From NCBI GenBank assembly GCA_032156805.1, contig JALDXQ010000003.1:6466-70465 (forward strand): a stretch of DNA of 64,000 nucleotides, in the 5' to 3' direction. The position numbers were made by a program, and so were the translations under genes. The notes under the pieces were generated by a model that had not been told where the DNA came from, searched no databases, and was given only the letters and a program-made list of their open reading frames with translations. This DNA comes from Acidobacteriota bacterium (GTDB taxonomy: Bacteria; Acidobacteriota; Vicinamibacteria; Vicinamibacterales; UBA2999). This document shows, in pieces, positions 80-15,497 of this stretch (its first letter is position 1; each line of letters starts with the position of its first letter).

Positions 80-1279
80 TCACTGCGTCCCTGTTGGCGG
101 AGCCCCTCGACGGTTGCTCGGGGCGCCCTGAGCCCGGTCGAAGGGTGCGATTCCGAGAATCTTCGCCGGGTTGATCTTGAATAGCAAATCGAGCTCGCGC
201 TCGGTGAATCCGTTCGCGCGCAGCGCTTTTGCCGCGTTGGCCAGCGCGTCGGGCTGCCAGTTCGAGTTGAGCTGGCCCGTATCGCTCGACACGAACGCGT
301 GCTCGACGCCGGCGGCGCGGATGCCCTCGACGTACCGCTTCACGACCTCGGGCCGCGCGTTGGGGTTGCCGAACCCCGACGTGAACTCCGCATAGATCTC
401 GGGGCCGAGTGCAACCGTCTCTTTGATCTCCTCCGCTGTCATGTCCACGATGTCGAGCAGCGGGTGCGTGATGATGATGTGCTTCACCCCCACGCGCACC
501 GCTTCCTTGACGATCAGCTGCACCTCCGGCGGCGAGTTGTGTCCGGTCGCGAGGATGAGATCGCCGTTGCTGTCGCGCGTCTTGGCCTTGGCGATCACCG
601 CGAGGGCCTCTTTCACTTCCGGCAGCAGCTCGCCACCGTCGGGGCACGGCTTCGGATAGTTGATCCAGAAGGGGAGGCCTTTGCACTGCGCCACTGCCAC
701 GTACGCCGGCGGCCGGCGCGCCAGCCTGTGGATGCTGTTCTCCGAGTCCCAGCTCGGCATCCAAACGATGCGGCCCCATCCGCCTTTGATCTCGGCCATG
801 TGCGTGATCGCCCAGGGATTGACCTTCGTGCCGGTCGTCAGGTTGGAGCCCATGCCGCCGAAGATCTCCATGTCGGGATGGAGCTTGCGCATGTAGTAGG
901 CCAGCCCCGCGGTCTGATCGAGGTGGCCCTTGATGATGAACCCGCGCATGCCGGACGCTTTCGCTCGCGTGTAGAGATCCAGCGCGTCGATCGATCGCGC
1001 AGCCTGCCCGTAACTCGGCCCGAAGCTGTCGGGATCCTGGTGCGCGTGCATGTCGATCGCGCCCTTCAGCGCTGGATCGTTCGGCGCGGGATCGCTCAAC
1101 GAGTAGTTCGCACGTCCGCGTCCCGCCGGACCGCCCCCCTGCCCGCGATTGCCCTCGCCCGGCTCGCCGCGCTGCTCGGCCGCGCTGTTCTGACCCGTAC
1201 CGAGCGCCAGAGCCAGGCCGACGACGCATGCGCACACGGTCAGATGTCGTATGGAGCCGATTGATATCCGTGTCTTCAT
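80..1279 (-). CDS. Exported amidohydrolase-fold metalloprotein (DUF6282-like)
   Basis: Signal peptide; GAIDMHAHQDPD (HxH), LATGH, ITHP and SSDTGQ match TIM-barrel metallohydrolase ligand positions. Confidence 0.7.
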   Translation of the reverse strand: MKTRISIGSIRHLTVCACVVGLALALGTGQNSAAEQRGEPGEGNRGQGGGPAGRGRANYSLSDPAPNDPALKGAIDMHAHQDPDSFGPSYGQAARSIDALDLYTRAKASGMRGFIIKGHLDQTAGLAYYMRKLHPDMEIFGGMGSNLTTGTKVNPWAITHMAEIKGGWGRIVWMPSWDSENSIHRLARRPPAYVAVAQCKGLPFWINYPKPCPDGGELLPEVKEALAVIAKAKTRDSNGDLILATGHNSPPEVQLIVKEAVRVGVKHIIITHPLLDIVDMTAEEIKETVALGPEIYAEFTSGFGNPNARPEVVKRYVEGIRAAGVEHAFVSSDTGQLNSNWQPDALANAAKALRANGFTERELDLLFKINPAKILGIAPFDRAQGAPSNRRGAPPTGTQ

Positions 1280-1381: not shown

Positions 1382-4300
1382 TCAGAAGTCCACTTGCGCA
1401 CTGAACTTCACCAGCCGCCCGTCGAGCACTTGCGTCGGCTGTCCCCATCGCGCGTTGTACGTGCCGAACAATGTGACCGGCGTATTGCTGTTGAAGAAAT
1501 TGTAAGCATCGACATTGAGCTGGAGCCGTGTCCCTCCCATCTGGAAGATCTTGGTGCCGCGCAGGTCGAACTGATTGATGCGCGGGCCGAAGGTCGAGAG
1601 CGGCGGGACGAGCGGAATGACGACCGACGTCACTCCTCCCGAGAGTGGCCGTCCCAGCGACGGCTGGATCTCGGCGAGCGTATAGGTGCGGTTGGCGCTG
1701 TAGTTCGCGCCCGGGTTGCTCTGGAAAACAGCGGCCACCTGGAGGCCGTACGGGAGCGTGTACGAGCCATTGAGCTTCACCCGGTTCTGATACGGCACGT
1801 TCACCTTGCAGTTGAACAGTTGCTGCGGTGAATCGATCACGTAGCAGGTGTCGGTCCCCGCCGAGGCGTTGCCGCCCGCCGCGGTACCGAGTTGCACGGC
1901 GTTGCCGATGTTCCAGCCGCCGCCGAGCGTGGCTCTGCCGAGCAGGCGAACCTGGAAATTGAGGTCCACGCCGTTGTAGATCTCCTCCTGCTTCCCGTAC
2001 GCGTCGTTGCGCGTAATCATGTTGTCCACCTGGCCGAACGCATTGGGGTTGATGTCGTAGAGCCCGCACAGTTGTTGCCCGCTCGTTTGCAGGCGGTCGT
2101 CCGCCGGTACCGTCACACAGTAGGGGCTGTAGTCGGCCGGCGTGACCCGCAGATTGTCCGTCACTTGGAAGTTGCCGTACCAGGTTCGGAAATAGCCCGC
2201 GTTCACCACCACGTTCGGGATCACCTCGCGATCGATGTTGATCGACGTCTGCCAGTTGTAGGTGCGCTTGCCCCAGCCCGTGATCCAGCCAGGATCAGGC
2301 GAATTCACCGGCACGTAGGTACCGAAATTGGGGTTGGCCATGGCGCCGCACTCGCCGTTGGCCGTTGTCGCGACGAGGTCGCAGTCGGGCAGGAAGTTAC
2401 CGCGGCGCGGATCGCCCACCGGGAACGTCGTGTCGTTCCACGAGCGCGTCGTGCTGTTCACTGCTCCGGCGGCCTGATCGAAGAGTTGCGCCAGACCGGT
2501 CGTGTTCGACTGCACGTAGCGGTTGATGCCGAACTTGATCGCCGTCTTCCCGCTGCCAGTTGGATCCCACACGACTGCGAATCGCGGATTGAGGTCTTTC
2601 CAGTTGGGCACGTCCGTGCGCGCGGGATAGCTGCGCGCCGGCACCAGCATGCCGGCCGGGACCTCGGTGGCTTTCACCGACTCGCGAAGCCAGTCGAACC
2701 GCAGTCCCGCGCTGAACGTGAAACGATCGATGCGCCATTGGTCCTGCACGTAGAGACCGAGATCGGGATTGAGCTGGTCGATGGTGTAGATGGGCGACGC
2801 GAACTGCGTGAGCGAACGCGGTGAGCCGTTGAAGAAGCTGTACGACACCGGCAGCCCGTTCACCTGCGTGGGTCCGCGCGTCGTGTACGAGCGATGGCCC
2901 CCGCCCAGGCCGTACATCCAGAAGACGCCCGTCTTCACGGTGTGCTGTCCCTTGATGATCGACACGTTGAAGCGCCCGTTCGACTGGTGCGACAGGCTCA
3001 TGTTCCGGTTGCCGACGCCGTTGTAGGTGAACCCGAGGCCGGTGTCGTTGATCGACACGTTGTCCTGGATCCCTCCGCCGCAGCCTTCGTAATCCGACAG
3101 GAACAGATCCTCACCGAAACCGCCGAAGTTGAATTTGCTCACCGTGACGCCGGCGTCGAACAGGAGCGCGTTCGAGTGCGGCCGGCTCCACGATCCCTGG
3201 AGCACCTCGTGGCGCTGGCAATAGCCCGGGTTGCCCTCGTTCTTGATGGTGCCGGTCTCGAGCTGCCCGGTCAGCTGGTCCTGGAAATTCCGTTGCTTGT
3301 CCCACGAGAAGGAGAGCTTGTCCTTCGAGCTTGCCTGGTAGGTGAGTCGGGCGCCGATGCCCTTGTTCGACTCCTCGGGCTCGATCGGGCTGGTGCTGTC
3401 CGGCGTGTAGAGGAAGTCGCTCACGTTCGTGTCCGCAAACAGGTTGGCGACGCCGGTCGTCGTCCCCCATCGGCGCGCCGAGGCAAAGAACCAGAGGCGA
3501 TCGGCCAGCACGGGGCCCCCGAACGCGACGTTGAAGTCGTAGACCTTCTGGACGCTGTTGACCGACGTCAACCCCTGCGCGATGAGGTCGTCATCGAGGT
3601 TGTTGCTCTGAAGGGCATCGCCCGTGCCGGCGACGAAGAACGATCCCGTGAAGCGGTTGCCTCCGTCCCTGGGAATGCTGTTCACCTGCGCGCCGCCGAG
3701 CGAATACACGGCCGAGCCCATCGTCCCGAGATCGACAACGACCTCCTGCACGGCGAGCGGATTCACGTAGTAGCCGCGCCCCGTGCCTTCGAGGGTGCCG
3801 ATGCCTGGCGTCAACGCGTTGTAGCGCATCCCGTCCTGCAGCAGGCGCGAGTCGAACGTCTTGCCGCCGTGCACGGTGATGCGGACGGAACGCTCACCCT
3901 TGCTGCCGCCCACGTCCTGCGCATTGGGCGGCTCGACGACCGCGGGAATCAGCGCCGCTATGCCCAGCACGCTCTTGGCGGTGGGCACAGTGTCGAGCAC
4001 ATCTTTCGTGACCGTGCGCTGCTGGGTCGCGCTCTGCACGTCCACCAGTGGCGTGGCACCTGACACGGTGATCGTCTCCTCGAGTTGGCTGAGCGTGAGC
4101 TCCGCGTCCACCTGTGCGGTGAAGTTGGTGCGCAGCTCGAGGCCCTCGCGCTTCAGCGTCGAGAAGCCGGTGAGTGAAAACGTGACGGTGTATGTGCCAG
4201 GCCTCAGCTCGGGCAACCGATACTGGCCGCCATCGTCGGTGATGGTTGATCGAACTTTTTCGATGAGAGCCGGGCTGGCGGCCTCGATGGTCACGCCGGG

Positions 4301-4435
4301 AAGCACGGCGCCCGATGCGTCACGAACGACGCCGGAGATAGTGGCCGTACTGGCGCCTTGCGCCAGCGCCGACGCGGGGATCAGGCTCAGAACGACGACC
4401 AGGCATGCGCGACGACCGAAAGGTGCCAACAGCAC
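1382..4435 (-). CDS. TonB-dependent receptor with N-terminal carboxypeptidase-regulatory-like domain
   Basis: ISGVVRDASGAVLPGVTIEAASPAL N-domain, GLYVQDQW, C-terminal VDF; GTG start at 4435 after AAGGAGG. Confidence 0.9.
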   Translation of the reverse strand: MLLAPFGRRACLVVVLSLIPASALAQGASTATISGVVRDASGAVLPGVTIEAASPALIEKVRSTITDDGGQYRLPELRPGTYTVTFSLTGFSTLKREGLELRTNFTAQVDAELTLSQLEETITVSGATPLVDVQSATQQRTVTKDVLDTVPTAKSVLGIAALIPAVVEPPNAQDVGGSKGERSVRITVHGGKTFDSRLLQDGMRYNALTPGIGTLEGTGRGYYVNPLAVQEVVVDLGTMGSAVYSLGGAQVNSIPRDGGNRFTGSFFVAGTGDALQSNNLDDDLIAQGLTSVNSVQKVYDFNVAFGGPVLADRLWFFASARRWGTTTGVANLFADTNVSDFLYTPDSTSPIEPEESNKGIGARLTYQASSKDKLSFSWDKQRNFQDQLTGQLETGTIKNEGNPGYCQRHEVLQGSWSRPHSNALLFDAGVTVSKFNFGGFGEDLFLSDYEGCGGGIQDNVSINDTGLGFTYNGVGNRNMSLSHQSNGRFNVSIIKGQHTVKTGVFWMYGLGGGHRSYTTRGPTQVNGLPVSYSFFNGSPRSLTQFASPIYTIDQLNPDLGLYVQDQWRIDRFTFSAGLRFDWLRESVKATEVPAGMLVPARSYPARTDVPNWKDLNPRFAVVWDPTGSGKTAIKFGINRYVQSNTTGLAQLFDQAAGAVNSTTRSWNDTTFPVGDPRRGNFLPDCDLVATTANGECGAMANPNFGTYVPVNSPDPGWITGWGKRTYNWQTSINIDREVIPNVVVNAGYFRTWYGNFQVTDNLRVTPADYSPYCVTVPADDRLQTSGQQLCGLYDINPNAFGQVDNMITRNDAYGKQEEIYNGVDLNFQVRLLGRATLGGGWNIGNAVQLGTAAGGNASAGTDTCYVIDSPQQLFNCKVNVPYQNRVKLNGSYTLPYGLQVAAVFQSNPGANYSANRTYTLAEIQPSLGRPLSGGVTSVVIPLVPPLSTFGPRINQFDLRGTKIFQMGGTRLQLNVDAYNFFNSNTPVTLFGTYNARWGQPTQVLDGRLVKFSAQVDF

Positions 4436-4518
4436 TGCTCCCTCCTTGTGTGATGCGCAACGACAAGCGGCGAAGGAGGCGCGCGGCGGGGGACAGCCCC
4501 ACAACACGAGCCGCGCGG

Positions 4519-4586
4519 ATTATGAGAAGCGCGCGGGCGGTGACTCAATGCAGGAATTGTCATCAATTGTCATCCTTCGGATGACA
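4519..4586 (-). promoter_or_regulatory. Putative promoter (CATAAT -10) with OmpR/PhoB-like direct-repeat box
   Basis: ATTATG at 4519-4524; TTGTCATCAATTGTCA at 4557-4572, identical to 8701-8716; extra inverted half-site forms TGTCATCC-TTC-GGATGACA. Confidence 0.7.
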
Positions 4587-4688
4587 CGTCACGCGAGTTG
4601 GAGTGTGGCGAAGGTGGACGCGCGACACACACAAATCCCGACACGCCTGGAAGCGCGCGATCGATCGCGAGGTCCAACGGGCTGCCGT

Positions 4689-5255
4689 CTACTTCTTCAA
4701 CAACGGGTGCACGTACCCTGCGGGCAGCACGTGATCTGGATCCGGCCGCACCGAGACGTACTCGACGTGATCGTCGACGTCGGTGAAGCCGTGATAGACG
4801 CCAGGCGGGATGATGACGATGTCACCGGGGCCGACCTTTCGCGTTTGCGCCGCCTGCCGGAACGTGCCCTGGTTGCTGGGGCCAACCGCGATCTTCACGA
4901 TCTCGCCGTCCGCGGGAAGCGGTTTCGCGCCGTCCACGGCCCCGCCCGTCAGCAGCGTCCCCGATCCCGAGATGACGTAATAAACCTCGGTCACGTGTTC
5001 GTGGTTGATCGCGCTCACTGGAGCGCCAGGCTTCGTCCTGCCGCGGCGCAGCACACCGACGCTGACGTTGTACTTGCCCATGTCCACGACTTTCATCTGC
5101 CGATCCCCGCCACCGGTCGGCGCCGTGATGACGGTTTGCACGTCGGCGGCGGTGATGTCGGTCGCCAGTGTTGGTGGTTGTCCGCCCTGAGTGAGCGTGC
5201 CGGCCTGCGACAGCATGACGAGGACGAAGACGATGGCAAGCGCAATGCGATTCAT
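4689..5255 (-). CDS. Exported cupin-domain protein
   Basis: Signal peptide MNRIALAIVFVL; cupin motifs NHEHVTEVYYVISGSG and GDIVIIPPGVYHGF. Confidence 0.85.
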   Translation of the reverse strand: MNRIALAIVFVLVMLSQAGTLTQGGQPPTLATDITAADVQTVITAPTGGGDRQMKVVDMGKYNVSVGVLRRGRTKPGAPVSAINHEHVTEVYYVISGSGTLLTGGAVDGAKPLPADGEIVKIAVGPSNQGTFRQAAQTRKVGPGDIVIIPPGVYHGFTDVDDHVEYVSVRPDPDHVLPAGYVHPLLKK

Positions 5256-5269
5256 GAAGGAACCTCCCA

Positions 5270-7597
5270 TTACTTCTTCACCCATTTCTGCAGGCACCCG
5301 CCTGATGGACTGGCGTCGCATCCTCCCGTGAGTCCCGCGAAGACGTTGCCCTCGTTGTCGGCGCCCATGCCCTCGGGCCGGGTGCCCTGGACGTAGTAGC
5401 GGAGCGATCCGTCCTTCGCGCTGCCGATCCTGATGCCGTTGCCCCACCCGGGATTACGCACCACGCTCCCGCCACCCTCGGGCGCCTGCGGCGGACCGCC
5501 GATGAACTGGCTCGATTCGGAGTCGGCCACGATGATCGTGTCGTCTTTGAGGATCGCGATGCCGCTCGGCCGGCCGAAGTGGCGCCATTCGTCGACGAAC
5601 TGCATGTCGCGATCGAAGACCTGCACGCGGTTGTTCGAGCGGTCCGCGACGAACAGCCGTCCCTGCGAGTCGAACGCGAGCGCGTGAGGCCCCATGAACT
5701 CGCCCGGTGCCGTTCCCATCCTGCCGTACTGCGCGACGAAGGTTCCGTCGGTCTTGAGCCGCACCAGCCGATCGCCATCCTGCTGGGCGTCGGTCGGCCG
5801 CGGCCAGTGCCCGTCGGCGACGATGATGTCGCCGTTTGGTGCGATCGCGCACGCGGTTGGCCCGATGAACGTGTCGGTGCCGGCCCGCGAAACGCCGGCC
5901 TTACCGAGCGACAGCAGCACTTTCCCGTCGGGACTGAACTTGAACAACTGGAAGCCACGCCCCTTGGTTGCGGGGTTGTCCGCGAACGGGCCGCTGTCGC
6001 CGGCCCAGAAGTTCCCGTCGCGGTCCTGACAGAATCCGTGCGCCTGCACGAACATGCCGTTGCCGAACCGGCGATCGACTGCACCCGACGCGTCGATGTG
6101 CAGAATCGGCGGTTCCGATCGATGGTGCAGCCACGTGCCGCCCTTGCCGTCAGGGATGATGCCGATGGCGGCGCCCGGCTTGATGTCGCCGAGTCGCGGC
6201 CAATTCGGGGTCACTTGGTACGGGCTCGCCATCGTGCTCGTCCAGGGCGGATAGCCGCCGCGTGCCTGGCCGGGCGGTGGAAACCCGCGCGGACCGCTGC
6301 TCTGGGGTGACGCAGCAGCGGGCGCCGGCGCGGCCTGCCCTGATGCGGTCGGCGTCGCGGCGAGTTGCGCAGGCGTCAATGCGTTTGGCGGGAGCGTGCT
6401 CGAGAGTCCTTTGAACATGAATCGCTGCGCGCGCGCCCCCGGCGCGACCTCACCGGTGTAGAGGTTGCCCCTGGAATCGATCGCGAGGTGATGCAAGCCC
6501 TGAAAGTCTCCCGGCTTTTCGCTCCGTTGCCCGAACTGATAGAGAAGTTGAAGGCTTCTGCGATCGAGCACCGCAATGTGCGAGTTGCCGTAGTCGGCGA
6601 CATAGAGAAAGTCCTGCTGCGCGTCGGGGGAGAACGCCAGCCCCGCTGCCGACTGCGGAGACGGCCCGGATCGATTGATGAACGTTTGCGTGACGAACTT
6701 TCCGTCCGGCGTGAAGACCTGCACACGGCGGTTCGGACGGTCGGCCACGTAGACGAGTCCGTCGTTGGAGACCTTCACGGCGTGCACGGGCCCGCCGAAC
6801 TGCTGCGAGCCGGTGCCTTCGGTATCGAGAGCCGGAGTCGCGCCACGGCCGCCGCCCGCATTCGCGCCGCCGCGAGCGCCTCCTGTTCCTCCTCCACGTG
6901 GCGCGGCCGGCACGTCGATCGGCACATTGCCGAATGCGCCCCACTGCCGTTTGAATGCTCCGGTGTCGGCGTCGAAGACGATGACGCGACGGTTGCCATA
7001 GCCGTCGGCGACAAACGCCTCGTTTGTCTTGGGCCACACGAAGACGTCAGCCGACTGGTGGACGGTCTTCGTATCAGCGTTGCCCGTGCTCTTGCTCCTG
7101 CCGCCGATCTGCAGCACGAACTTTCCCTTGTTGTCGAATTTGAGGAGCATGTCGTCGTCGAGATTCCGAAGCGACGGTGCGATCGGTGCGCTGCCGCCGA
7201 TCCATACGTTGTCCTTGTAATCGACCGCGATGCCGTGTTCGCTGTCCGGCCAGTCGTAGCCCGAACCGGGGCCGCCCCACGCGTTGACGAATTTCCCCGA
7301 TGCATCGAACTCCAGCACCGGTGGCGCCGCATGGCTGCGGCGATCCTCAGGAATCGTGTTCGGGCGGTGCAGCATCCAGACGTGATCGCGCCGATCCACA
7401 GCTACCGACGCGACGTGTCCCACGACCCAGTTGGTCGGCAGCTTCGGCCATGCCGGGTCGACTTCGAAGACGGGGACCTGTCTCGCACCCGAAGACGATT
7501 GCGCGTGCGCGCCAGAGTTCGAGAGCGTTACCACTGCCGCCATCAGCACGAGACCGACAACGACGACGCTGAAATTCCGCCAGGTTGATCTATGCAT
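5270..7597 (-). CDS. Exported protein with two tandem NHL-repeat beta-propellers (PAL-like)
   Basis: Signal peptide; repeated NHL motifs (FVADGYGNRRVIVFD, YVADRPNRRVQVF, FVADRSNNRVQVFD); two domains starting FEVDPAWPKLP and YQVTPNWPRLG, joined by an Ala/Pro linker. Confidence 0.85.
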   Translation of the reverse strand: MHRSTWRNFSVVVVGLVLMAAVVTLSNSGAHAQSSSGARQVPVFEVDPAWPKLPTNWVVGHVASVAVDRRDHVWMLHRPNTIPEDRRSHAAPPVLEFDASGKFVNAWGGPGSGYDWPDSEHGIAVDYKDNVWIGGSAPIAPSLRNLDDDMLLKFDNKGKFVLQIGGRSKSTGNADTKTVHQSADVFVWPKTNEAFVADGYGNRRVIVFDADTGAFKRQWGAFGNVPIDVPAAPRGGGTGGARGGANAGGGRGATPALDTEGTGSQQFGGPVHAVKVSNDGLVYVADRPNRRVQVFTPDGKFVTQTFINRSGPSPQSAAGLAFSPDAQQDFLYVADYGNSHIAVLDRRSLQLLYQFGQRSEKPGDFQGLHHLAIDSRGNLYTGEVAPGARAQRFMFKGLSSTLPPNALTPAQLAATPTASGQAAPAPAAASPQSSGPRGFPPPGQARGGYPPWTSTMASPYQVTPNWPRLGDIKPGAAIGIIPDGKGGTWLHHRSEPPILHIDASGAVDRRFGNGMFVQAHGFCQDRDGNFWAGDSGPFADNPATKGRGFQLFKFSPDGKVLLSLGKAGVSRAGTDTFIGPTACAIAPNGDIIVADGHWPRPTDAQQDGDRLVRLKTDGTFVAQYGRMGTAPGEFMGPHALAFDSQGRLFVADRSNNRVQVFDRDMQFVDEWRHFGRPSGIAILKDDTIIVADSESSQFIGGPPQAPEGGGSVVRNPGWGNGIRIGSAKDGSLRYYVQGTRPEGMGADNEGNVFAGLTGGCDASPSGGCLQKWVKK

Positions 7598-7627
7598 TGG
7601 ACTCGCCTCAGTCAACGCCCAACTCCG

Positions 7628-8641
7628 CTATGGAACGGCGCGAGCCGTTCCATAGTTGTCGTCCCAGCGGATGTTCAGCCAGAAGATGTCAGGCGACACC
7701 TGGCTGAAGCCGTGGTAGAAGTTCGACGGGTGGAAGAACACGTCGCCCGGTTTGGTCACCACTGACACGCCCGTATTGGGTACGCGTTCGCCGTCCTTGA
7801 CCTGATACCCCGTGTTCACAGTGGCGCCGCCGGCCAGCACGTACCACGTGTCGATCGTCTGCTCGTGCGACTCCACCGACGGCGTGCCGTTCCATCGCAG
7901 GTTCACGTTGTAGCGCCCACCCTCGATCAGCCGTGTATTACCGGACTTCTTCAGGCGCATGCCTGCCATGATCTGCTCGAGCTGCTGCTTCGAGAAGAAC
8001 AGCTCGCCGCTGCCGCCGTAGCTGTAGGGCAGTGCCTGCTGGCTGCCTGGCGGCAGTGAGGGACCGCGTCCGCGGCCGCCACCCGCGCGGCCGAGGAGGC
8101 CATTCAATGTGCCAGCCCCCATCGGAGAATCGGGCGGCCAGTCCGTGTCCCACCGCACGTTCAGCCACGTGATGTTCTTGTCGACACCGCTCACGCCGTG
8201 CGGCAGTCCTGAGGGGATGTAGACGATGTCGCCCGTCTTGATCTGGCGGCTCTGACCGCCATTGATCTTGCCCTTCTCGAGCACGCCTCCGGTGGTCAGC
8301 GTGCCGCCGCCCTCGAGCACGACCCAGAGGTCCGCAGTGATCGGGTGGACCAGCCCTGTCTCGGCGGCAGTGATGCGGCGGATGTTCACGTTGTACTTGC
8401 CGCCTTCAATCATGCGAAGCGTCTGGAGCTTCTTCGCATCCATGTCCTTCAGGTGCTGCGCCAGCTGTTCTCTGGGAATGGCGATCGAGTGGTCCCTGGG
8501 CGCCTGCTGCAGGATGACCGTTCGCCCCTCGCCGCCTCGTCCGCGGCCCGCTCCGTCGGCCGGCGCCTGTGCGCCGCCCTGTGCGAGCCCGATGGACCCG
8601 CAGGCCACGATGAGTGCCGCCCGGATCGCCGTGTTCCGCAT
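7628..8641 (-). CDS. Exported bicupin protein
   Basis: AAGGAG RBS before MRNTAIR; two internal repeats (RMIEGGKYNVNIR / RLIEGGRYNVNLR), each with cupin His motifs (GLPHG, NFYHG). Confidence 0.8.
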   Translation of the reverse strand: MRNTAIRAALIVACGSIGLAQGGAQAPADGAGRGRGGEGRTVILQQAPRDHSIAIPREQLAQHLKDMDAKKLQTLRMIEGGKYNVNIRRITAAETGLVHPITADLWVVLEGGGTLTTGGVLEKGKINGGQSRQIKTGDIVYIPSGLPHGVSGVDKNITWLNVRWDTDWPPDSPMGAGTLNGLLGRAGGGRGRGPSLPPGSQQALPYSYGGSGELFFSKQQLEQIMAGMRLKKSGNTRLIEGGRYNVNLRWNGTPSVESHEQTIDTWYVLAGGATVNTGYQVKDGERVPNTGVSVVTKPGDVFFHPSNFYHGFSQVSPDIFWLNIRWDDNYGTARAVP

Positions 8642-8663
8642 GACTGCTCCTTTACCGCCGCGC

Positions 8664-8717
8664 ATTATGAGCGGCGGCGCCCGGGCTGCAGCCGTGGCAT
8701 TTGTCATCAATTGTCAC
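8664..8717 (-). promoter_or_regulatory. Putative promoter (CATAAT -10) with second copy of the direct-repeat box
   Basis: ATTATG at 8664-8669; TTGTCATCAATTGTCA at 8701-8716. Confidence 0.7.
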
Positions 8718-8788
8718 TGAGGGAGGGAGACGCATCCGAACAGTTGGCGTTCCCGTATAATCCCGGTTCGTTCGCGGGGAGAGGGCCT

Positions 8789-9862
8789 GTGACCACGACG
8801 TCATCCCGTTTTCGATCCGGTCGTCGTGCGAGCGCAGCGTCTGGCAAACCGGCTGGACGCCGGTTCACGATCGCTGGCAAACCGGCTGGGCGCCGGTTCA
8901 CGATCGCTGGCAAACCAGCTGGGCCCTGGTTTGCTGTAGCGACGTTGCTGGTTTCGCTGTGCACGGCCTGCTCGTCGGGGGCAGCGGCTCCGCAGCCACA
9001 ACAGCTCAGGCTGTGGTCCGGCATCGCGCCGCGGTTCACCAACGATTTGATCCAGCGCTTCAACAGCGCGCTTCCCCAGACCTACATCAGCCTGCAGCCA
9101 ACCTCGGGCGGCGTCGTCGCCGTGTCAGCGGTGGACGGCGGGGAAGGGCAGTTGGGGCTCGCCCAGGCCGATGTCGTGTACCTCGCCTACCGGCGCGGCA
9201 TCGAGCGCAACCAGTATCCGCACAAGAACCTTCGCGCGATCGCGGTCCTGTGGGTGAACACTTTTCACGTGCTGGTCAGGCGTGACAGCTCCTTCATGTC
9301 GATCGAGGATCTGAAGGGCCAACGCGTCGGCATCATCCCGCCGGGGACGTCGGGCGAGTTCTCGACGCGGATCGTGCTGAGCGCCCACGGTCTCAGCTAC
9401 GCGGACATGCAGCCGATCTTCGAGCCCACCGACAGCCTCGTGCCGAAGCTCGCGTCGGGCCAGATCGACGCGGTGTTCAGCGCGAACCCGCTCATGCTGA
9501 CCGCCACCCGTACGCTCAGCCAGAGCGTCCCGCTCCGCCTGTTGCCAATCGGCCGCACCGTGACCAACCGGCTGCGCGGCAGCTATCCGTTCCTCAGGCC
9601 AGTGACGGTTGCCGCCAACCAACTCACGGGTCAGAGTCGGCCGATTGAGACGCTCGGCGCGGAGTGGCTGCTCGTCTGTCGCAGCGATCTGTCCGAGGAT
9701 CTCGTCTATCAGTTGACGCGAGCGTTCTTCGATCAGCTGCCTGCGCTGGCGCGCGATCACGGTGAAGCCGCGCTCATCGATCCCGATCAGGCACCTGCGG
9801 CTCCGATCCCCCTGCATGCCGGCGCGGCCCGCTATTATCGCGAGCGCGAGATCCTGCGATGA
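8789..9862 (+). CDS. TAXI-family TRAP-type solute-binding lipoprotein
   Basis: Lipobox-like SLCTAC; PTSGG, QLGLAQAD, DLKGQRVG..GTSG and PIPLHAGAARYYRE are typical of TAXI; TATAAT at 8756-8761 upstream; start uncertain. Confidence 0.85.
   Translation: MTTTSSRFRSGRRASAASGKPAGRRFTIAGKPAGRRFTIAGKPAGPWFAVATLLVSLCTACSSGAAAPQPQQLRLWSGIAPRFTNDLIQRFNSALPQTYISLQPTSGGVVAVSAVDGGEGQLGLAQADVVYLAYRRGIERNQYPHKNLRAIAVLWVNTFHVLVRRDSSFMSIEDLKGQRVGIIPPGTSGEFSTRIVLSAHGLSYADMQPIFEPTDSLVPKLASGQIDAVFSANPLMLTATRTLSQSVPLRLLPIGRTVTNRLRGSYPFLRPVTVAANQLTGQSRPIETLGAEWLLVCRSDLSEDLVYQLTRAFFDQLPALARDHGEAALIDPDQAPAAPIPLHAGAARYYREREILR
8841..8939 (+). repeat. 33-bp in-frame tandem repeat x3 (GKPAGRRFTIA)
   Basis: CTGGCAAACCGGCTGGRCGCCGGTTCACGATCG at 8841 and 8874; degenerate third copy at 8907. 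Confidence 0.9.
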
Positions 9863-11700
9863 TCGAGACAGGATCCGCTTCGGATCAGGCTGCGGCGGAC
9901 AAGCCGCAGGCCGTGGTTGGCGCCGAGCTGAACCAACCCAATGCTGGTGTGTTCGGGTGGCTTCACCGGCATGTGACGTTCGGCCGGCGGCGAGTTGCCG
10001 ATGGCGCCGTCCGTCTTCCAACCATCATGACGTTCGTTGTCGCAATGTTCGCAGCGACCGTCGCGCTGGTGTGGTTCGGGTACGTGGCCACTCGCGAGTG
10101 GCGGAGCGGTACGAATCTGCTCCTCGAACGGCGCGCCAACGAGGCACTGGCGCTCGTGCGCGCGGCGCTCAGTGCCGACATGAAGGGAGCCTGGATTACG
10201 ACTCTCGTCCCCTTCAACACCACGATGCTGGACGAGGATCCGCCGTACAACATGTTTCAGGTCTCTGCGCGCAGCTTTGCGCGGTTCCCTTATCCTGAGT
10301 CGTTCGTGCTGTGGAAAAACACCAGCCCTCGGCAAGGCTTCGGCGAGGCCGAAGGCAATACCTACGTGTTCAATCGCGCCGATCGCCCACCGCCGTGGGA
10401 CACGCGGCCGTCGTCGGACGATCCTTTCCCGGTCGTGCTGGTGCGCGACCCGCCCGTGCTGGCTGGGCTCGTCGCGGATATCCGAAAGCATGCGACGGCG
10501 GCGTCGCCGTTCATCATGCTGGAGCGACCAATCGAGGGGACGCCCTACCAGATCGTCGCGCACGCGATCTTTGCGTCAGGTCCGTCTCACACACTCCTGG
10601 GATTCATGGCCTTCACGGTCAACGAGCGGTGGCTGCACACGCAGTATTTCGATCCCCTGGTCGAACAGGTCGAGAAGATCGGTGGAGGACAGGGCCTCTC
10701 GATTACGGTGTCCGACGATGAGGGCCAGGTGGTGACGAAGACCGCGCCGGTGGAGCCTCACGACGGCGACCTGCACACGCGATTCCCACTCCTGTTCATC
10801 GATCCGGCGCTCGTCAAGTCGATCCCGGCGCGACCGGCACGCGTCCGCGAGTGGACGGTGCACGTACGGTCGCTGCCGGATCAGACGCTCGTTGCGACGC
10901 TCCAGGGCGCACGGCGGATGTTCATCCTGATTTCGATTGCGGCGGGCGCGAGTCTGCTGGCACTCGTCCTGACGGTTCGCGCCGACCGGGCGAGCGCGGC
11001 GCTGGCGTCGATGAAATCCGATTTCGTCGCCGCCGTGACGCACGAGCTGAAGACGCCGGTGGCGTCCATCCGGCTCGTGGGCGACACCCTTGCCAACGGC
11101 CGTTACACCTCGCCCACGACCGTGCGGGAATACGCTGGTCTGTTGTCGGTGGAAGCGTCCCGTCTCGGTGCTTCGATCGATAACCTCCTCACCTACGCGC
11201 GCTACAACAGCTCCGATGCGGCGGCGGCGACCGAACTCGCCGACGTCGAGCCGGCCGATCTGGTCGAGGACGCGCTGCAGGGCGTTCGGCCGGTGCTGGC
11301 CAACCTGGAGTTCGATCTGGTCGTTGATGTGCCGGCCGATCTCCCGCAGATCTGTGTCGATCGGCCAGCGATGATTCAGGCGCTCGACAACATCGTGGAC
11401 AACGCGATCAAGTACTCGACGACGGCCAAGCACCTGGCCATAAGAGGCAGCGCCACCGGCAAGAGCGTCACGCTGACCGTCCAGGATCGCGGGACCGGCA
11501 TTGCCCGCAAGGACCTGTCGCGTGTCTTCGAACGCTTCTATCGGGGCGGCAACGTCACCGTCAGCGGCAGCGGCCTCGGGTTGCCGATCGCGAAACGCAT
11601 CGTCGAGAGCCATGGAGGGAAGATCGCCGTGCGCAGCGCCGTCGGATCGGGAACCGAAGTCGATGTGACGCTGCCGATCGGCCGGGGTCGAAGCGCGTGA
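9859..11700 (+). CDS. Membrane sensor histidine kinase
   Basis: Two TM segments around a periplasmic domain; H-box HELKTP, N-box NIVDNAIKYS, DRGTGI, GSGLGL; ATGA overlap with the TAXI stop. Confidence 0.95.
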   Translation: MIETGSASDQAAADKPQAVVGAELNQPNAGVFGWLHRHVTFGRRRVADGAVRLPTIMTFVVAMFAATVALVWFGYVATREWRSGTNLLLERRANEALALVRAALSADMKGAWITTLVPFNTTMLDEDPPYNMFQVSARSFARFPYPESFVLWKNTSPRQGFGEAEGNTYVFNRADRPPPWDTRPSSDDPFPVVLVRDPPVLAGLVADIRKHATAASPFIMLERPIEGTPYQIVAHAIFASGPSHTLLGFMAFTVNERWLHTQYFDPLVEQVEKIGGGQGLSITVSDDEGQVVTKTAPVEPHDGDLHTRFPLLFIDPALVKSIPARPARVREWTVHVRSLPDQTLVATLQGARRMFILISIAAGASLLALVLTVRADRASAALASMKSDFVAAVTHELKTPVASIRLVGDTLANGRYTSPTTVREYAGLLSVEASRLGASIDNLLTYARYNSSDAAAATELADVEPADLVEDALQGVRPVLANLEFDLVVDVPADLPQICVDRPAMIQALDNIVDNAIKYSTTAKHLAIRGSATGKSVTLTVQDRGTGIARKDLSRVFERFYRGGNVTVSGSGLGLPIAKRIVESHGGKIAVRSAVGSGTEVDVTLPIGRGRSA

Positions 11701-11713
11701 GCGTGAACGAAGT

Positions 11714-12400
11714 ATGCACATGGCCAAGCGCGTCCTGATCATCGAAGACGACAAGGCAATTGCCCGACTGCTTCGCGACAACCTGGAGTACGAGGGGTTC
11801 GTTGTCGAAACGTGCGACAACGGTCACGACGCGCTCCCGTCGGTCAAGCGGTTCACGCCGGACTTGCTGCTCCTCGACCTGATGCTCCCGCACGGCGCCG
11901 ACGGTTTCGACATCTGCCGGGCGCTGCACGAGAGCCCGACTCGCGTCCCGGTGATCATCCTGTCGGCCCGCGGGCAGAAAGAGGATCGCATCAAGGGACT
12001 GACGCTCGGCGCCGACGACTACGTGACGAAGCCTTTCGCCCTCGACGAATTGCTGGCGCGCGTGCACGCCGTCCTGCGCCGGACCAAGCCTCCCATCGAA
12101 CAGCTGCAGCTTGGCAACACAGTCATCGACTTTCGACGGTTGCGGGCCTACTGCGGCACGAGGCGGGTGGAACTGACCGATCGGGAGTTCGAGATCCTCC
12201 ACTGCCTCGCGGAACGGGCCGGACACGTGGTGACGCGGGACGAGTTGTTGCACCTGGTCTGGGGCTATTCGGATGCGCCGCTCACACGTACCGTGGACAA
12301 TTTCATCTTTCGGCTTCGCCACAAGCTGGAGCCTGATCCTCGCCATCCCACCTACATCCGCAAGGCGTACGGCGATGGCTACCGGCTGATCATCGAATAG
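11714..12400 (+). CDS. OmpR/PhoB-family response regulator
   Basis: IIEDD, LLLLDLMLP, GADDYVTKPF, winged helix RTVDNFIFRLRHKLE. Confidence 0.95.
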   Translation: MHMAKRVLIIEDDKAIARLLRDNLEYEGFVVETCDNGHDALPSVKRFTPDLLLLDLMLPHGADGFDICRALHESPTRVPVIILSARGQKEDRIKGLTLGADDYVTKPFALDELLARVHAVLRRTKPPIEQLQLGNTVIDFRRLRAYCGTRRVELTDREFEILHCLAERAGHVVTRDELLHLVWGYSDAPLTRTVDNFIFRLRHKLEPDPRHPTYIRKAYGDGYRLIIE

Positions 12401-12522: not shown

Positions 12523-13368
12523 ATGTCCAGCCGGATGTTCGCCGTTGCGATTGTGTGCGCCGCAGTCGTTTCGTTGGACGCCCAGTGGCTCAACTATCCC
12601 GCGGCGGGCATTCCGAGGACCAAGGACGGGAAGCCCGATCTTTCTGCGCGTACTCCACGCACGGCCGACGGCAAGCCCGATCTGTCAGGGGTGTGGACAA
12701 CCGATCCCACGCCGGTCGCTGAGATGGAGCGTCTCTTTCCAGACCTCGGCGCGTTCGCGGTCCCAGGCGATGATCCCAGGTTTTTCCCCAAGTTCTTCAT
12801 CAACGTGTTTGCGGATGTGAGGCGCGAAGACGTGCCGATCAAACCCGCAGCGCTGCAGTTGCTGATGGAGCGCGGGAAGAATTTCGGCAAGGACAATCCA
12901 ACGTCCCACTGTCTGCCGGCAAGCGTTCCGATGGGCGACTTGCTACCGATCCCGCGACGGTTCATTCAAGTACGCGGCTTGCTGGTCGTCCTGTATGAAG
13001 GGTACAACCCTCAACGTCTGATCTACATGGATGGACGAAAGCATCCCGTCGACCCGCAGCCGTCGTGGATGGGCTACTCAGTCGGCAGGTGGGAGGGAGA
13101 CACGCTCGTGATCGACACGCGCGGTTTCAACGATCGCGCCTGGCTCGATGCCTTCGGGCATCCAAGGACCGAGGCCATGCACATCGTCGAACGTTGGCGA
13201 CGACGTGACTTTGGGCACATCGACGTCGAGACCAGGTTCGACGATCCGGGCGCCTACACCAAGCCGTTTTCGATTCGCTACACCCAGACGCTGACGCCCG
13301 ATACTGATGTGATCGAGGGCGTCTGTGCTGAGAACGAGAAAGATCGGATCCATCTGGACGCCAAGTAG
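12523..13368 (+). CDS. Exported protein of the 'GKPDLSGxW' family
   Basis: Signal peptide; PRTADGKPDLSGVW, HCLP, GRWEGDTLVIDT, EGVCAENE; paralogues at 34671, 35651 and 49609. Confidence 0.8.
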   Translation: MSSRMFAVAIVCAAVVSLDAQWLNYPAAGIPRTKDGKPDLSARTPRTADGKPDLSGVWTTDPTPVAEMERLFPDLGAFAVPGDDPRFFPKFFINVFADVRREDVPIKPAALQLLMERGKNFGKDNPTSHCLPASVPMGDLLPIPRRFIQVRGLLVVLYEGYNPQRLIYMDGRKHPVDPQPSWMGYSVGRWEGDTLVIDTRGFNDRAWLDAFGHPRTEAMHIVERWRRRDFGHIDVETRFDDPGAYTKPFSIRYTQTLTPDTDVIEGVCAENEKDRIHLDAK

Positions 13369-13967: not shown

Positions 13968-15497
13968 ATGAAAACTCTGATTGCGTTCGCATGCGTCCTT
14001 GGGTTCGGCACCGTCGTGAATGCCCAGGGCACCTCCCTTGGAGCCGCCGAGTGCGAGCAGCTGACCGCCTCGCTCGGCGCACACGACGTCAAGGTCACCG
14101 CGGCCTCGGCCATCGCGGCGGGTCACTTCAACCCTCCACCCACTGGCGGCTCGAGTGCGGCGCCAGCGCCGCTGAAGGACCTGCCGGCCTTCTGCCGCGT
14201 GCAACTGACGCTGACGCCGTCCGCCGACTCGGACATCCGATCCGAGATCTGGCTGCCGATGACGAACTGGAACGGGAAGTTTCAGCAGGTCGGCAATGGC
14301 GGGTGGGGTGGGTCGATTCAATACGCCGCGCTCGCAACCGCGCTCCGCCGGGGGTACGCGACTGCATCCACCGACACCGGCCACGTTGGCGACACGGCGC
14401 GATTCGCGCTGGGTCATCCAGAGAAGCTGATTGATTTCGGTTACCGCGCGGTGCACGAGACGGCCGTACGAAGCAAGGCGGCCATCACCGCCGCCTACGG
14501 CGCCGGCCCGCGCTTCTCCTATTTCAACGGGTGTTCCGGAGGCGGCCGCCAGGGGTTCATGGAGGCGCAGCGTTATCCGGACGACTTCGACGCGATCATC
14601 GCCGGCGCGCCCGGCTACAACCGCACTGACCAGAGCTTTCAGCTCGTGCTCGCCTCGCAGGCGACACATCGCGACGAGGCCAGCTTCATTCCGGCGTCCA
14701 AGCTGCCCGCACTCCACAAGGCTGCACTCAATGCCTGCGACGCCAGAGACGGTGCGGCAGACGGCCTTATCAGCGATCCGATGACCTGCCGAATCGATCC
14801 CAGTGTGCTCGCGTGCAAGGATGCAGACGGCGCCGAGTGCCTGACTCCCGCGCAGATCGAGTCGGCCAAGCGGATCTATGCGCCGGTGATCGATCCGCGC
14901 ACGGGCCGTGAGGTCTTTCCTGGTGTCGAAGCCGGCAGTGAGCCGCGCTGGACGGTGAACGCCGGCGGCCCGAGGCCGCTCGGCATGTCCGAGGAGCTGT
15001 TCAAATACGTAGTCTTCAAGGATCCCGAGTGGGATTTCCGCACGCTCGACGTGGCGAAGCATCTCGACATGGCACGCGCGGCCGATGGCGGCACGATCAG
15101 CGCGACCTCGCCGAACATCAAACCGTTCATCGATCGCGGCGGGAAGCTGATCATCTACCACGGCTGGGGCGACACGAACGTCCCGCCCCGGTCGTCGGTC
15201 AACTACTACGACAAGCTGGTGGAGGCGCTTGGCGCGAACCAGGTCGCGAGCTCGATGCGCCTCTATCTCGTGCCCGGCATGGGGCATTGCGGGGGCGGCG
15301 AGGGGCCGAACGTGTTCGATATGGTCACCGTCGCCGAAGAGTGGCGCGAACAAGGGAAGGCGCCGGCGGATGTGATCGCGTCACAGGTCGTCGACGGGAA
15401 CGTCGTCCGCACGCGTCCGCTGTGCCAGTACCCGCTCGTCTCGCGTTACAAGGGGTCAGGGAGCCTCGATCAGGCCGCCAGCTTCGAGTGCCGTTGA
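13968..15497 (+). CDS. Tannase/feruloyl esterase family alpha/beta hydrolase
   Basis: Signal peptide; GCSGGGRQG nucleophile motif, HGWGD, PGMGHC, RTRPLCQYP. Confidence 0.92.
   Translation: MKTLIAFACVLGFGTVVNAQGTSLGAAECEQLTASLGAHDVKVTAASAIAAGHFNPPPTGGSSAAPAPLKDLPAFCRVQLTLTPSADSDIRSEIWLPMTNWNGKFQQVGNGGWGGSIQYAALATALRRGYATASTDTGHVGDTARFALGHPEKLIDFGYRAVHETAVRSKAAITAAYGAGPRFSYFNGCSGGGRQGFMEAQRYPDDFDAIIAGAPGYNRTDQSFQLVLASQATHRDEASFIPASKLPALHKAALNACDARDGAADGLISDPMTCRIDPSVLACKDADGAECLTPAQIESAKRIYAPVIDPRTGREVFPGVEAGSEPRWTVNAGGPRPLGMSEELFKYVVFKDPEWDFRTLDVAKHLDMARAADGGTISATSPNIKPFIDRGGKLIIYHGWGDTNVPPRSSVNYYDKLVEALGANQVASSMRLYLVPGMGHCGGGEGPNVFDMVTVAEEWREQGKAPADVIASQVVDGNVVRTRPLCQYPLVSRYKGSGSLDQAASFECR

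Follow-up and report, generated by a model that had tools for sequence, protein, structure and literature searches.

A two-copy tandem-repeat box as the probable operator of a TAXI-linked two-component system in an uncultured Acidobacteriota bacterium

Tandem operators and the locus compared

The OmpR sites F3 and C3 of Escherichia coli, which belong to ompF and ompC, are 20 bp long and consist of two tandem 10-bp half-sites. Their proximal sites are found at about -40 to -60, activation takes place through the alpha subunit of the polymerase, and OmpR uses arrays of three or four sites with graded affinity. The Pho box has a different period, 11 bp (a 7-bp repeat and a 4-bp spacer), and it takes the place of the -35 element. 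The present work deals with a 16-bp box of this general type, which is found twice in a stretch of 64,000 nucleotides from an Acidobacteriota bacterium (assembly GCA_032156805.1, contig JALDXQ010000003.1, positions 6,466 to 70,465). We call this whole stretch the window. Both copies lie upstream of predicted promoters, next to an operon coding for a TAXI-family solute-binding lipoprotein, a sensor histidine kinase and an OmpR/PhoB-family response regulator (Table 1). The box is probably the operator through which this regulator activates two neighbouring operons.

OmpR-family regulators bind direct repeats whose half-sites start about 10 bp apart, as described in parts of PMC9275681, and they do so as head-to-tail dimers, according to passages of the same paper and of PMC4415409. 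A close parallel is the HLR1 site of the cyanobacterial regulator RpaB. In the passages of PMC6525291 which deal with it, HLR1 is given as (G/T)TTACA(T/A)(T/A), 2 nt, and the same again, that is, as 8-nt direct repeats; activation is associated with a centre at about -51, repression with sites that cover the transcription start. The box described here is similar: it too is connected, as we propose, with an OmpR-family regulator, has direct repeats with a 10-bp period, can be written in the same 8+2+8 layout and shares the half-site pattern T-T-x-x-C-A. There are differences. The half-site is TTGTCA, not TTTACA or GTTACA, and the sets of targets are unequal: a large photosynthesis regulon for RpaB, two or three local promoters here, where the sensor would be a periplasmic kinase linked to a TAXI protein.

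As for the Pho box of E. coli, the features in common are direct repeats, a tandem head-to-tail dimer of winged-helix domains (predicted in our case) and, in the best conserved Pho half-site, CTGTCAT, a sequence close to TTGTCAT, as far as the account of that half-site in PMC4415409 goes. Unlike the Pho box, the present box has a 10-bp period, lies 31–32 bp upstream of the -10 and does not replace the -35, and no copy is found at the likely pst genes. In contrast to the OmpR arrays, each promoter has a single 20-bp site, with no further phased units flanking it by eye. The local regulator stays below the cut-off of every NCBIfam equivalog: MtrA, 201.7 of 300 bits; RpaB, its second-best sub-threshold match, 198.8 of 330, far under the limit; PhoB (TIGR02154), 191.6 of 296.2; OmpR, 168 of 331.

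Periplasmic binding proteins encoded next to a kinase and acting as its co-sensor are also known: BctC with BctE and BctD in Bordetella, DctB with DctS in Bacillus subtilis, TorT with TorS and LuxP with LuxQ, as described in parts of PMC8050422, PMC5812351 and PMC12718363. Genes for binding proteins which stimulate kinases usually adjoin the signalling genes, according to a passage of PMC8050422. The present case differs from those co-sensors in two respects: its binding protein is a member of the TAXI subfamily, and no Pfam family covers the kinase's periplasmic domain, about 270 amino acids long. Our literature searches found no described pair of TAXI protein and kinase, nor any description of this box.

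Table 1. Features of the locus, with positions in the window.
Feature	Position	Strand	Details
Box 1, predicted operator of barrel/DUF6282 operon	4554..4573	-	units ATGACAATTG + ATGACAATTC; matrix score 42.0 bits
Box 2, predicted operator of cupin-NHL-cupin operon, common to the divergent TAXI-kinase-regulator operon	8698..8717	-	units GTGACAATTG + ATGACAAATG; matrix score 40.1 bits
Predicted -10 CATAAT, barrel promoter	4519..4524	-	32 bp downstream of box 1; ATTATG on + strand
-35-like TTGAGT	4543..4548	-	18 bp upstream of -10; from promoter scan; TTG invariant in 11/11 class A promoters
Predicted -10 CATAAT, cupin operon promoter	8664..8669	-	31 bp downstream of box 2
Predicted -10 TATAAT, TAXI-kinase-regulator operon	8756..8761	+	39 bp from box 2
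8-bp inverted repeat TGTCATCC (4568-4575) / GGATGACA (4579-4586)	4568..4586		overlaps distal half-site of box 1
Leader of outer-membrane barrel mRNA, about 75 nt	4436..4512	-	11-ortholog alignment, RNAalifold consensus
Target gene 1: outer-membrane beta-barrel, 1017 amino acids, N-terminal carboxypeptidase-regulatory-like domain, TonB-dependent-receptor-like	1382..4435	-	Pfam PF25183, PF13620
Target gene 2: DUF6282 protein, downstream of barrel gene	80..1279	-	Pfam PF19799
Target gene 3: secreted cupin, 337 amino acids, first gene past box 2	7628..8641	-	Pfam Cupin_2
Target gene 4: NHL-repeat beta-propeller protein	5270..7615	-	Pfam NHL; synteny
Target gene 5: small cupin	4689..5447	-	Pfam Cupin_2; tblastn ranges
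TAXI-family solute-binding lipoprotein, proposed co-sensor	8789..9862	+	TIGR02122, 196.7 bits (cut-off 84.35); Pfam NMT1_3; lipobox-like LVSLCTAC
Sensor histidine kinase	9859..11700	+	two membrane segments around the periplasmic domain, then HisKA, HATPase_c
OmpR/PhoB-family response regulator, proposed box-binding protein	11714..12400	+	Pfam Response_reg PF00072 (6e-31), Trans_reg_C PF00486 (2.9e-24)

The box, its spacing and its conservation

The 16-mer TTGTCATCAATTGTCA is found on the + strand at 4557-4572 and 8701-8716, as reported in a first-pass annotation made from the sequence of the window. Read on the minus strand it is TGACAATTGATGACAA, and the box consists of two tandem direct 10-bp units, ATGACAAwTs; across sites, the extended units compare as ATGACAATTG / ATGACAA(A/T)T(G/C), and those of box 2 agree at 9/10 positions. 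The pattern TGACAA-N4-TGACAA is a direct repeat with a period of 10 bp, within the 10–11 bp or so between half-site starts of OmpR/PhoB-type operators, and CAATTG is the sole inverted symmetry inside the box. When up to three mismatches are allowed, these two copies are the only ones in the window. Shuffled sequences lead us to expect 0.20, a figure which understates the case because both copies are exact. The looser pair TTGTCA-N4-TTGTCA, with up to two mismatches, shows no enrichment in the window (2 found, 2.03 expected); therefore the signal lies in the full element of 16–20 bp and not in the hexamer pair alone.

The window is part of an assembly of 7,878,925 bases in 404 contigs, with 63.8% GC. 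In this whole genome the 16-mer has two exact copies, none with one mismatch and two with two mismatches, which are one site divided between two contig ends; the reversed 16-mer, used as a control, matches nowhere unless three mismatches or more are allowed. The same picture comes from a position weight matrix derived from 24 orthologous sites. Besides the two boxes (scores in Table 1) it finds a third site with 26.0 bits; no other site scores above 18.5 bits, and with the matrix reversed no match in the genome exceeds 14 bits. At the third site (C306:6532-6547, at the contig ends C306/C339) a TATGGT is found 30 bp away, and a gene for a secreted protein of 330 amino acids follows. The two-copy box is real and beyond chance. 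Judged by these scans, it is exclusive to this locus, and the regulon which it would define directly from sequence, as suggested earlier, consists genome-wide of two operons and one weak candidate.

Both spacings to a minus-strand CATAAT given by the first-pass annotation have been found again, as well as the TATAAT ahead of the TAXI operon, downstream of box 2. When the two upstream regions are aligned, what they share is limited to the box with one or two bases beside it and to the octamer CTCATAAT; the sequences in between are unrelated. We call class A the promoters of the barrel gene, with box 1, and class B those of the intergenic region with box 2. From the box to NATAAT there are 32 bp in 10/11 class A promoters and 30 bp in the remaining one, and in class B the distance to (C/G)ATAAT is 31–32 bp in 13/13, so that the spacer is 30–32 bp in 24/24 promoters when both classes are pooled. 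The distance from the -10 to the start codon, on the other hand, ranges from 8 to 75 nt in class B. Since this distance varies and the spacer to the box is kept, the hexamer goes with the box rather than with the reading frame, which is what one expects of a promoter element. A -35 and a -10, with 9/12 matches, are present in the class A promoter itself. We have also considered whether the proximal TGACAA could be the -35 of an alternative sigma factor, and rejected it: by eye, nothing similar to a -10 is conserved 16–18 bp downstream in either class.

The 16-mer was then searched for in 194 genomes of the same family, allowing one mismatch; these tallies include G025 and G066, marked unpublished, on which none of our specific claims depends. 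There are 36 matches in 22 genomes, against one match for the control. Most of them, 17 exact and 7 with one mismatch, belong to the two orthologous promoter classes in 13 genomes (G000, G079, G089, G090, G100, G109, G110, G115, G118, G121, G124, G128 and G129). One more match, with one mismatch, is found in a look-alike promoter ahead of another receiver gene in G090. The other 11, all with one mismatch, are in unrelated or coding contexts; near three of them there is a weak homolog of a gene of the locus. We have not counted as members the one-mismatch matches in G006, G021, G025, G062, G065, G091, G131, G166 and G171. Those of G025 and G166 resemble coding sequence, the one of G062 is upstream of an NHL-like gene, in G065 there is a 26%-identical barrel-like match nearby, and in G091 a homolog of the 281-amino-acid protein of the locus about 850 bp away; no further homolog of the remaining locus genes was found near these outside matches.

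TAXI orthologs with at least 75% identity are found in exactly the same 13 of the 194 genomes (in G100 only as a fragment of 68 residues at a contig end), while the next best match anywhere has at most 45%. Apart from the look-alike in G090, the box is found in these promoter contexts only in the 13 genomes with an adjacent TAXI-kinase-regulator operon. Cupin orthologs with 85–86% identity are present in two other genomes, G091 (96% complete) and G076 (63% complete), with no box within 1.5 kb, even when as many as 4 mismatches in 15 are allowed. The search with the TAXI protein gave no ortholog in either genome, and the cupin gene lies there behind a different upstream gene.

Our alignments contain 11 genomes for class A and 13 sequences from 12 genomes for class B. 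In class A, conservation starts exactly at the box, GACAATTGAT(G/A)ACAATT, and continues through the TTG of the -35-like hexamer, CATAAT and the leader; nothing upstream of the box is conserved in the 11 genomes. The core of the box is invariant in 11/11 promoters, except for T/C at its first base and G/A in G110. In class B the conserved parts are islands: the box, kept in 13/13 promoters, (C/G)ATAAT and, on the opposite strand, the TAXI promoter's TATAAT block together with the opening codons of the TAXI gene. On these alignments, the box and its spacing to the -10 are under purifying selection.

Gene order is not the same everywhere. In G000, G079 and G110 it is DUF6282, barrel, box, small cupin, NHL, cupin, box, TAXI, kinase, regulator. 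In G115, G118, G124 and G129 the barrel/DUF6282 module is found past the regulator gene, on the other side of the two-component system, and in G109 and G121 it is on a separate contig. The module retains its own box in all six of these rearranged genomes. As far as comparison of these genomes goes, the box is co-inherited with the two-component system. In G128 there is also a second copy of the locus (contig C34, L088:1-3000), in which a stop codon or a frame change breaks up the TAXI and kinase matches, and yet each box is an exact copy. It has the appearance of a duplicate in which the sensor genes are decaying.

The exact 16-mer is also found in metagenome contigs, in at least 121 stretches. 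Among those listed, 15 have a GC content of at least 0.62 and 106 a lower one. A class A or class B signature, or adjoining homologs of the TAXI, kinase, cupin or barrel genes, is present in 11 of the 15 and in none of the 106. In eight stretches with 49–57% GC (L191, L210, L233, L258, L260, L279, L282 and L283) the 16-mer is accompanied by TTTTGATGACAATTGATGACAA and then by a T-rich stretch containing TTCG; judged by its sequence, this context is an unrelated recurrent element of other organisms. Another stretch, L220, which comes from a relative, has box 2 about 20 bp from CATAAT, and not at the usual 31–32 bp: the difference is about one helical turn. In the contigs of a soil metatranscriptome run (5% of sampled words), near-identical pieces are found on 5075-5231 and 8141-8327, the rest being relatives; we have not used this run as evidence.

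The regulator and the rival explanations

A regulator with a receiver and a winged-helix domain, the type of protein that binds OmpR/PhoB operators, is available at the locus itself. Its closest solved relatives are RpaA, the best structure match, and MtrA. It is the best conserved protein of the locus, with 91–96% identity between genomes, compared with 73–90% for the others. The segment which contains LTRTVDNFIFRLRHKLE, the presumed recognition-helix stretch, is invariant in 8/8 orthologs, and there are a few substitutions elsewhere in the C-terminal domain. When genome contigs were searched with the regulator, the matches listed contained paralogs with at most 53% identity and no orthologs.

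In our view the box is probably an operator with its centre near -51, to which this local regulator would bind as a dimer and so activate both operons. The first-pass annotation had already assigned the box to the regulator gene at 11714, and as a prediction this has been strengthened: a 10-bp direct repeat, co-occurrence in 13 genomes which survives rearrangement, a constant spacer in all 24 promoters and absence where the system is absent all point to it. The centre near -51 is what the spacer of 30–32 bp gives if the NATAAT hexamers are the -10 elements. Activation of the two minus-strand promoters is proposed because RpaB sites at -51 go with activation and the family binds as dimers.

Several observations weigh against this interpretation. 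The 13 genomes are kin, so our counts are not independent trials, and the co-occurrence of box and TAXI gene is partly automatic, because box 2 lies in the intergenic region beside that gene; independent weight comes solely from the class A box and from the rearrangements. In G110 both boxes have the same G-to-A change and the presumed recognition-helix stretch is unchanged, so covariation gives no support: the change in the box has no matching change in the regulator. In G090 a class-A-like box and promoter are found ahead of an unrelated receiver-domain gene, therefore the cassette can move. The position at -51 depends on CATAAT being the -10. At the third site, orthologs of the downstream gene with 84–86% identity in G110, G115, G118 and G129 have no box within 1.5 kb, and about 0.2 chance occurrences of a 26-bit score are expected in the genome, according to our estimate; this site is only a candidate member of the regulon. 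The TATAAT of the TAXI promoter is kept in 13/13 sequences, as is its opposite-strand block, GGATTATA(C/T)G(G/A)GA, but its distance to the box is 28, 31, 38 or 39 bp, which is not on one helical face. Autoregulation of the TAXI operon, proposed as possible in the first-pass annotation, thus keeps its conserved hexamer and loses the constant distance, and it is weaker for that reason; by sequence, feedback of the shared box 2 on this divergent operon is possible. Finally, the genome contains at least 12 OmpR-family regulators of similar score, and judged by sequence each of them is a possible binder.

This last point leads to the question of whether the box could be bound by a regulator encoded elsewhere, with the local adjacency being incidental: either another OmpR-family paralog or a genomic PhoB, in which case we would be looking at a phosphate-starvation box. 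Seven of the other regulators do outscore the local one on the PhoB model, and the half-site TTGTCA resembles the Pho half-site CTGTCAT of E. coli (in the part of PMC4415409 that deals with it). Against this, the box is confined in this genome to the present locus, tracks the local system in 13/13 genomes and is missing at the cupin orthologs in 2/2 genomes without the system. On contig C17, which carries the likely pst locus (genes for a PBP_like_2 protein and a permease, with a regulator gene 4.5 kb off), the matrix finds no match above 14 bits, and by eye the repeats upstream of that locus are of a TAACA type with an 11-bp period. The marks of a Pho regulon are a PhoB equivalog score, a box at the pst locus and an 11-bp period with replacement of the -35: none of them is found here. 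The Pho likeness mentioned in the first-pass annotation is superficial, given the 10-bp period, the distance to the -10, a score of 191.6 bits where 296.2 are required and the lack of a pst box; its refuting case, binding by the genomic PhoB instead, does not agree with the lack of a box at the probable pst locus. We consider it unlikely that the binder is encoded elsewhere.

Equally improbable, in our opinion, is that binding of the box by the local regulator serves mainly repression or dual regulation, for example with the box autoregulating the TAXI operon and the minus-strand promoters being constitutive. Box 2 is common to divergent promoters, and in the class A promoter the -35 and -10 are themselves fair. 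RpaB can be an activator or a repressor depending on the position of its site, as stated in a passage of PMC6525291. The TAXI promoter may in turn need an activator, because its TATAAT is found without a conserved -35 in the class B alignment. Repressors usually act by overlapping core promoter elements, while a site centred near -51 is clear of them. In addition, the spacing is strict to the minus-strand -10s and not to the TAXI -10, and in the first gene order described above (arrangement I) box 1 has no divergent partner gene.

There is a further and very improbable explanation, that the box is an intrinsic promoter element, A+T-rich and similar to the UP elements contacted by the alpha subunit of the polymerase, or a copied cassette without a dedicated regulator. 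UP elements lie at about -41 to -60, which is where the box is found, and 11/16 of its bases are A or T in a genome with 64% GC. Both promoters also share CTCATAAT, and a near-copy of the class A cassette stands ahead of an unrelated gene in G090 (contig C74, L094:7867-7882), with a one-mismatch box, TTTGCTTC and CTCATAAT at 32 bp; by its sequence, this cassette seems to have been captured elsewhere. A general contact element for the polymerase should nevertheless recur at strong promoters, and the genome has no other copy. The G/C positions of the repeats are as invariant as the A/T positions in 24 sites, and the box co-occurs with the regulator and not with the cupin gene. Nor are the two promoters recent copies of one cassette, because the sequences between box and -10 are unrelated in the two classes.

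TAXI protein, target genes and the proposed circuit

The TAXI gene overlaps the start of the kinase gene, and both form one operon. No transporter membrane domain of the TRAP type is encoded in the 11 neighbouring open reading frames that were scanned. This is the arrangement expected for sensing that depends on a binding protein: binding protein and kinase in one operon, with no transporter membrane gene beside them. A model of the complex between TAXI residues 62-357 and kinase residues 78-350 has a score of 0.72, while the best of three controls has 0.02. The mark for this score is reached by 116/157 solved complexes and by 2/215 mismatched pairs, counts which are only approximate, since the alignments were our own. 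At least 72% of the contacts agree between runs, and the predicted local distance difference test score (pLDDT) of the partner is at least 85. As a prediction, the model supports a contact between the TAXI protein and the periplasmic domain of the kinase. Its interface involves TAXI residues 333-357 and kinase residues 126-144 and 187-194.

The N-terminal length of the TAXI protein varies between genomes, since its relatives align well only from about residue 45–50 onwards. The 5' end of the TAXI frame contains a tandem repeat with a 33-bp repeat (8841-8931, 2.8 copies, 93% matches), which codes for GKPAGRRFTIA units in the positively charged region ahead of the lipobox.

Among the genes behind the boxes, the barrel gene is found downstream of its box in 11 genomes, and the DUF6282 gene is syntenic in 8/9 of the barrel loci compared, the ninth stopping right past the barrel gene. 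Orthologs of the 337-amino-acid cupin are downstream of the box in 12 genomes. The small cupin probably starts near 5270, because its relatives align from about residue 55–63 on. Searches of solved structures with the 337-amino-acid cupin and with the DUF6282 protein gave no match at E <= 0.01. As a whole, the target genes look like an uptake and processing module.

The secreted protein behind the third site (C306:5484-6476 in G000; L015:453-1445, minus strand) has no Pfam family. In G118 and G129, paralogs of it follow the small cupin gene, and may, from this gene order, be part of the box-controlled operon. This family is greatly expanded: there are 43–74 matches per genome at E <= 1e-20 in five related genomes. 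Directly after the regulator gene, at 12523-13368, there is a gene for a protein of 281 amino acids without a family, weak homologs of which are found near two one-off box-like sites in other assemblies. A tannase/feruloyl-esterase gene (13968-15497) is found 1.5 kb past the regulator gene.

Box 1 has some features of its own. The first-pass annotation described an additional inverted half-site there, ATGACA at 4581-4586. The letters are present, as part of the arm GGATGACA of the 8-bp inverted repeat, but they belong to a hairpin-like structure which is found in only 4/11 class A promoters (G000, G110, G109 and G100), with a GC-rich insert of 3 to about 25 nt. The minus strand of 4550-4700 does not fold more stably than shuffled sequences (z = 0.05). 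A terminator of the upstream gene has been rejected as a sufficient explanation, given this value; in addition, the inverted repeat is not simply such a terminator because that gene is divergent in G109 and G100. The leader of the barrel mRNA is kept in 11 genomes, with a length of about 70–85 nt. Within it, a CCUCCU could base-pair with the ribosome-binding site, AAGGAGG, and so enclose a hairpin which is small and variable; this suggests translational control, as far as can be judged from the alignment. A search of Rfam with 4300-9100 gave only a chance-level match to an archaeal small RNA (24.5 bits, with a threshold of 71), and the leader matches no Rfam family.

We can now propose how the circuit would work. 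The periplasmic TAXI lipoprotein would bind a solute and contact the periplasmic domain of the kinase, which would phosphorylate the regulator. A head-to-tail dimer of the regulator would occupy the two tandem 10-bp ATGACAAwTs units, which cover about -41 to -60, with a centre at about -51, if CATAAT is the -10. This dimer would activate two promoters of the sigma-70 type, most likely through contact with RNA polymerase from an upstream position, as class I-like activators do. The outputs would be the outer-membrane barrel and the DUF6282 protein in one case, and the secreted cupin, the NHL propeller and the second cupin in the other; box 2 may also feed back on the divergent TAXI-kinase-regulator promoter. 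In all this, we infer the binding of the regulator, the activation, the transcription start sites and the role of the TAXI protein.

The circuit is most likely a small, locally wired sensing system of an ordinary kind, in an uncultured soil-type bacterium. A tandem-repeat operator of an OmpR-family regulator is textbook material; what is less common here is that a TAXI protein is likely to serve as co-sensor of a kinase whose periplasmic domain is unclassified. Tentatively, and with some doubt, we suggest that the orphan TAXI protein is an obligate ligand-binding co-sensor of the kinase, and that the pair drives, by means of a single type of operator at -51, a self-contained module for import at the outer membrane and for periplasmic processing by the cupin and NHL proteins. 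If this is true, it would be the first TAXI-dependent two-component system.

In summary, the sequence by itself allows a regulator, its operator and its regulon to be assigned for a two-component system not characterised before, in a lineage of which only assemblies exist. The operator is short and exact, and the genome contains hardly any other site like it. Once the assignment is confirmed, the target operons could serve as read-outs for the ligand of the orphan TAXI protein. If the tentative suggestion on the TAXI-kinase pair is true, ATGACAAwTs twice, 31–32 bp from a -10, would also be a sequence rule for recognizing the regulon of this system in uncultured soil bacteria.

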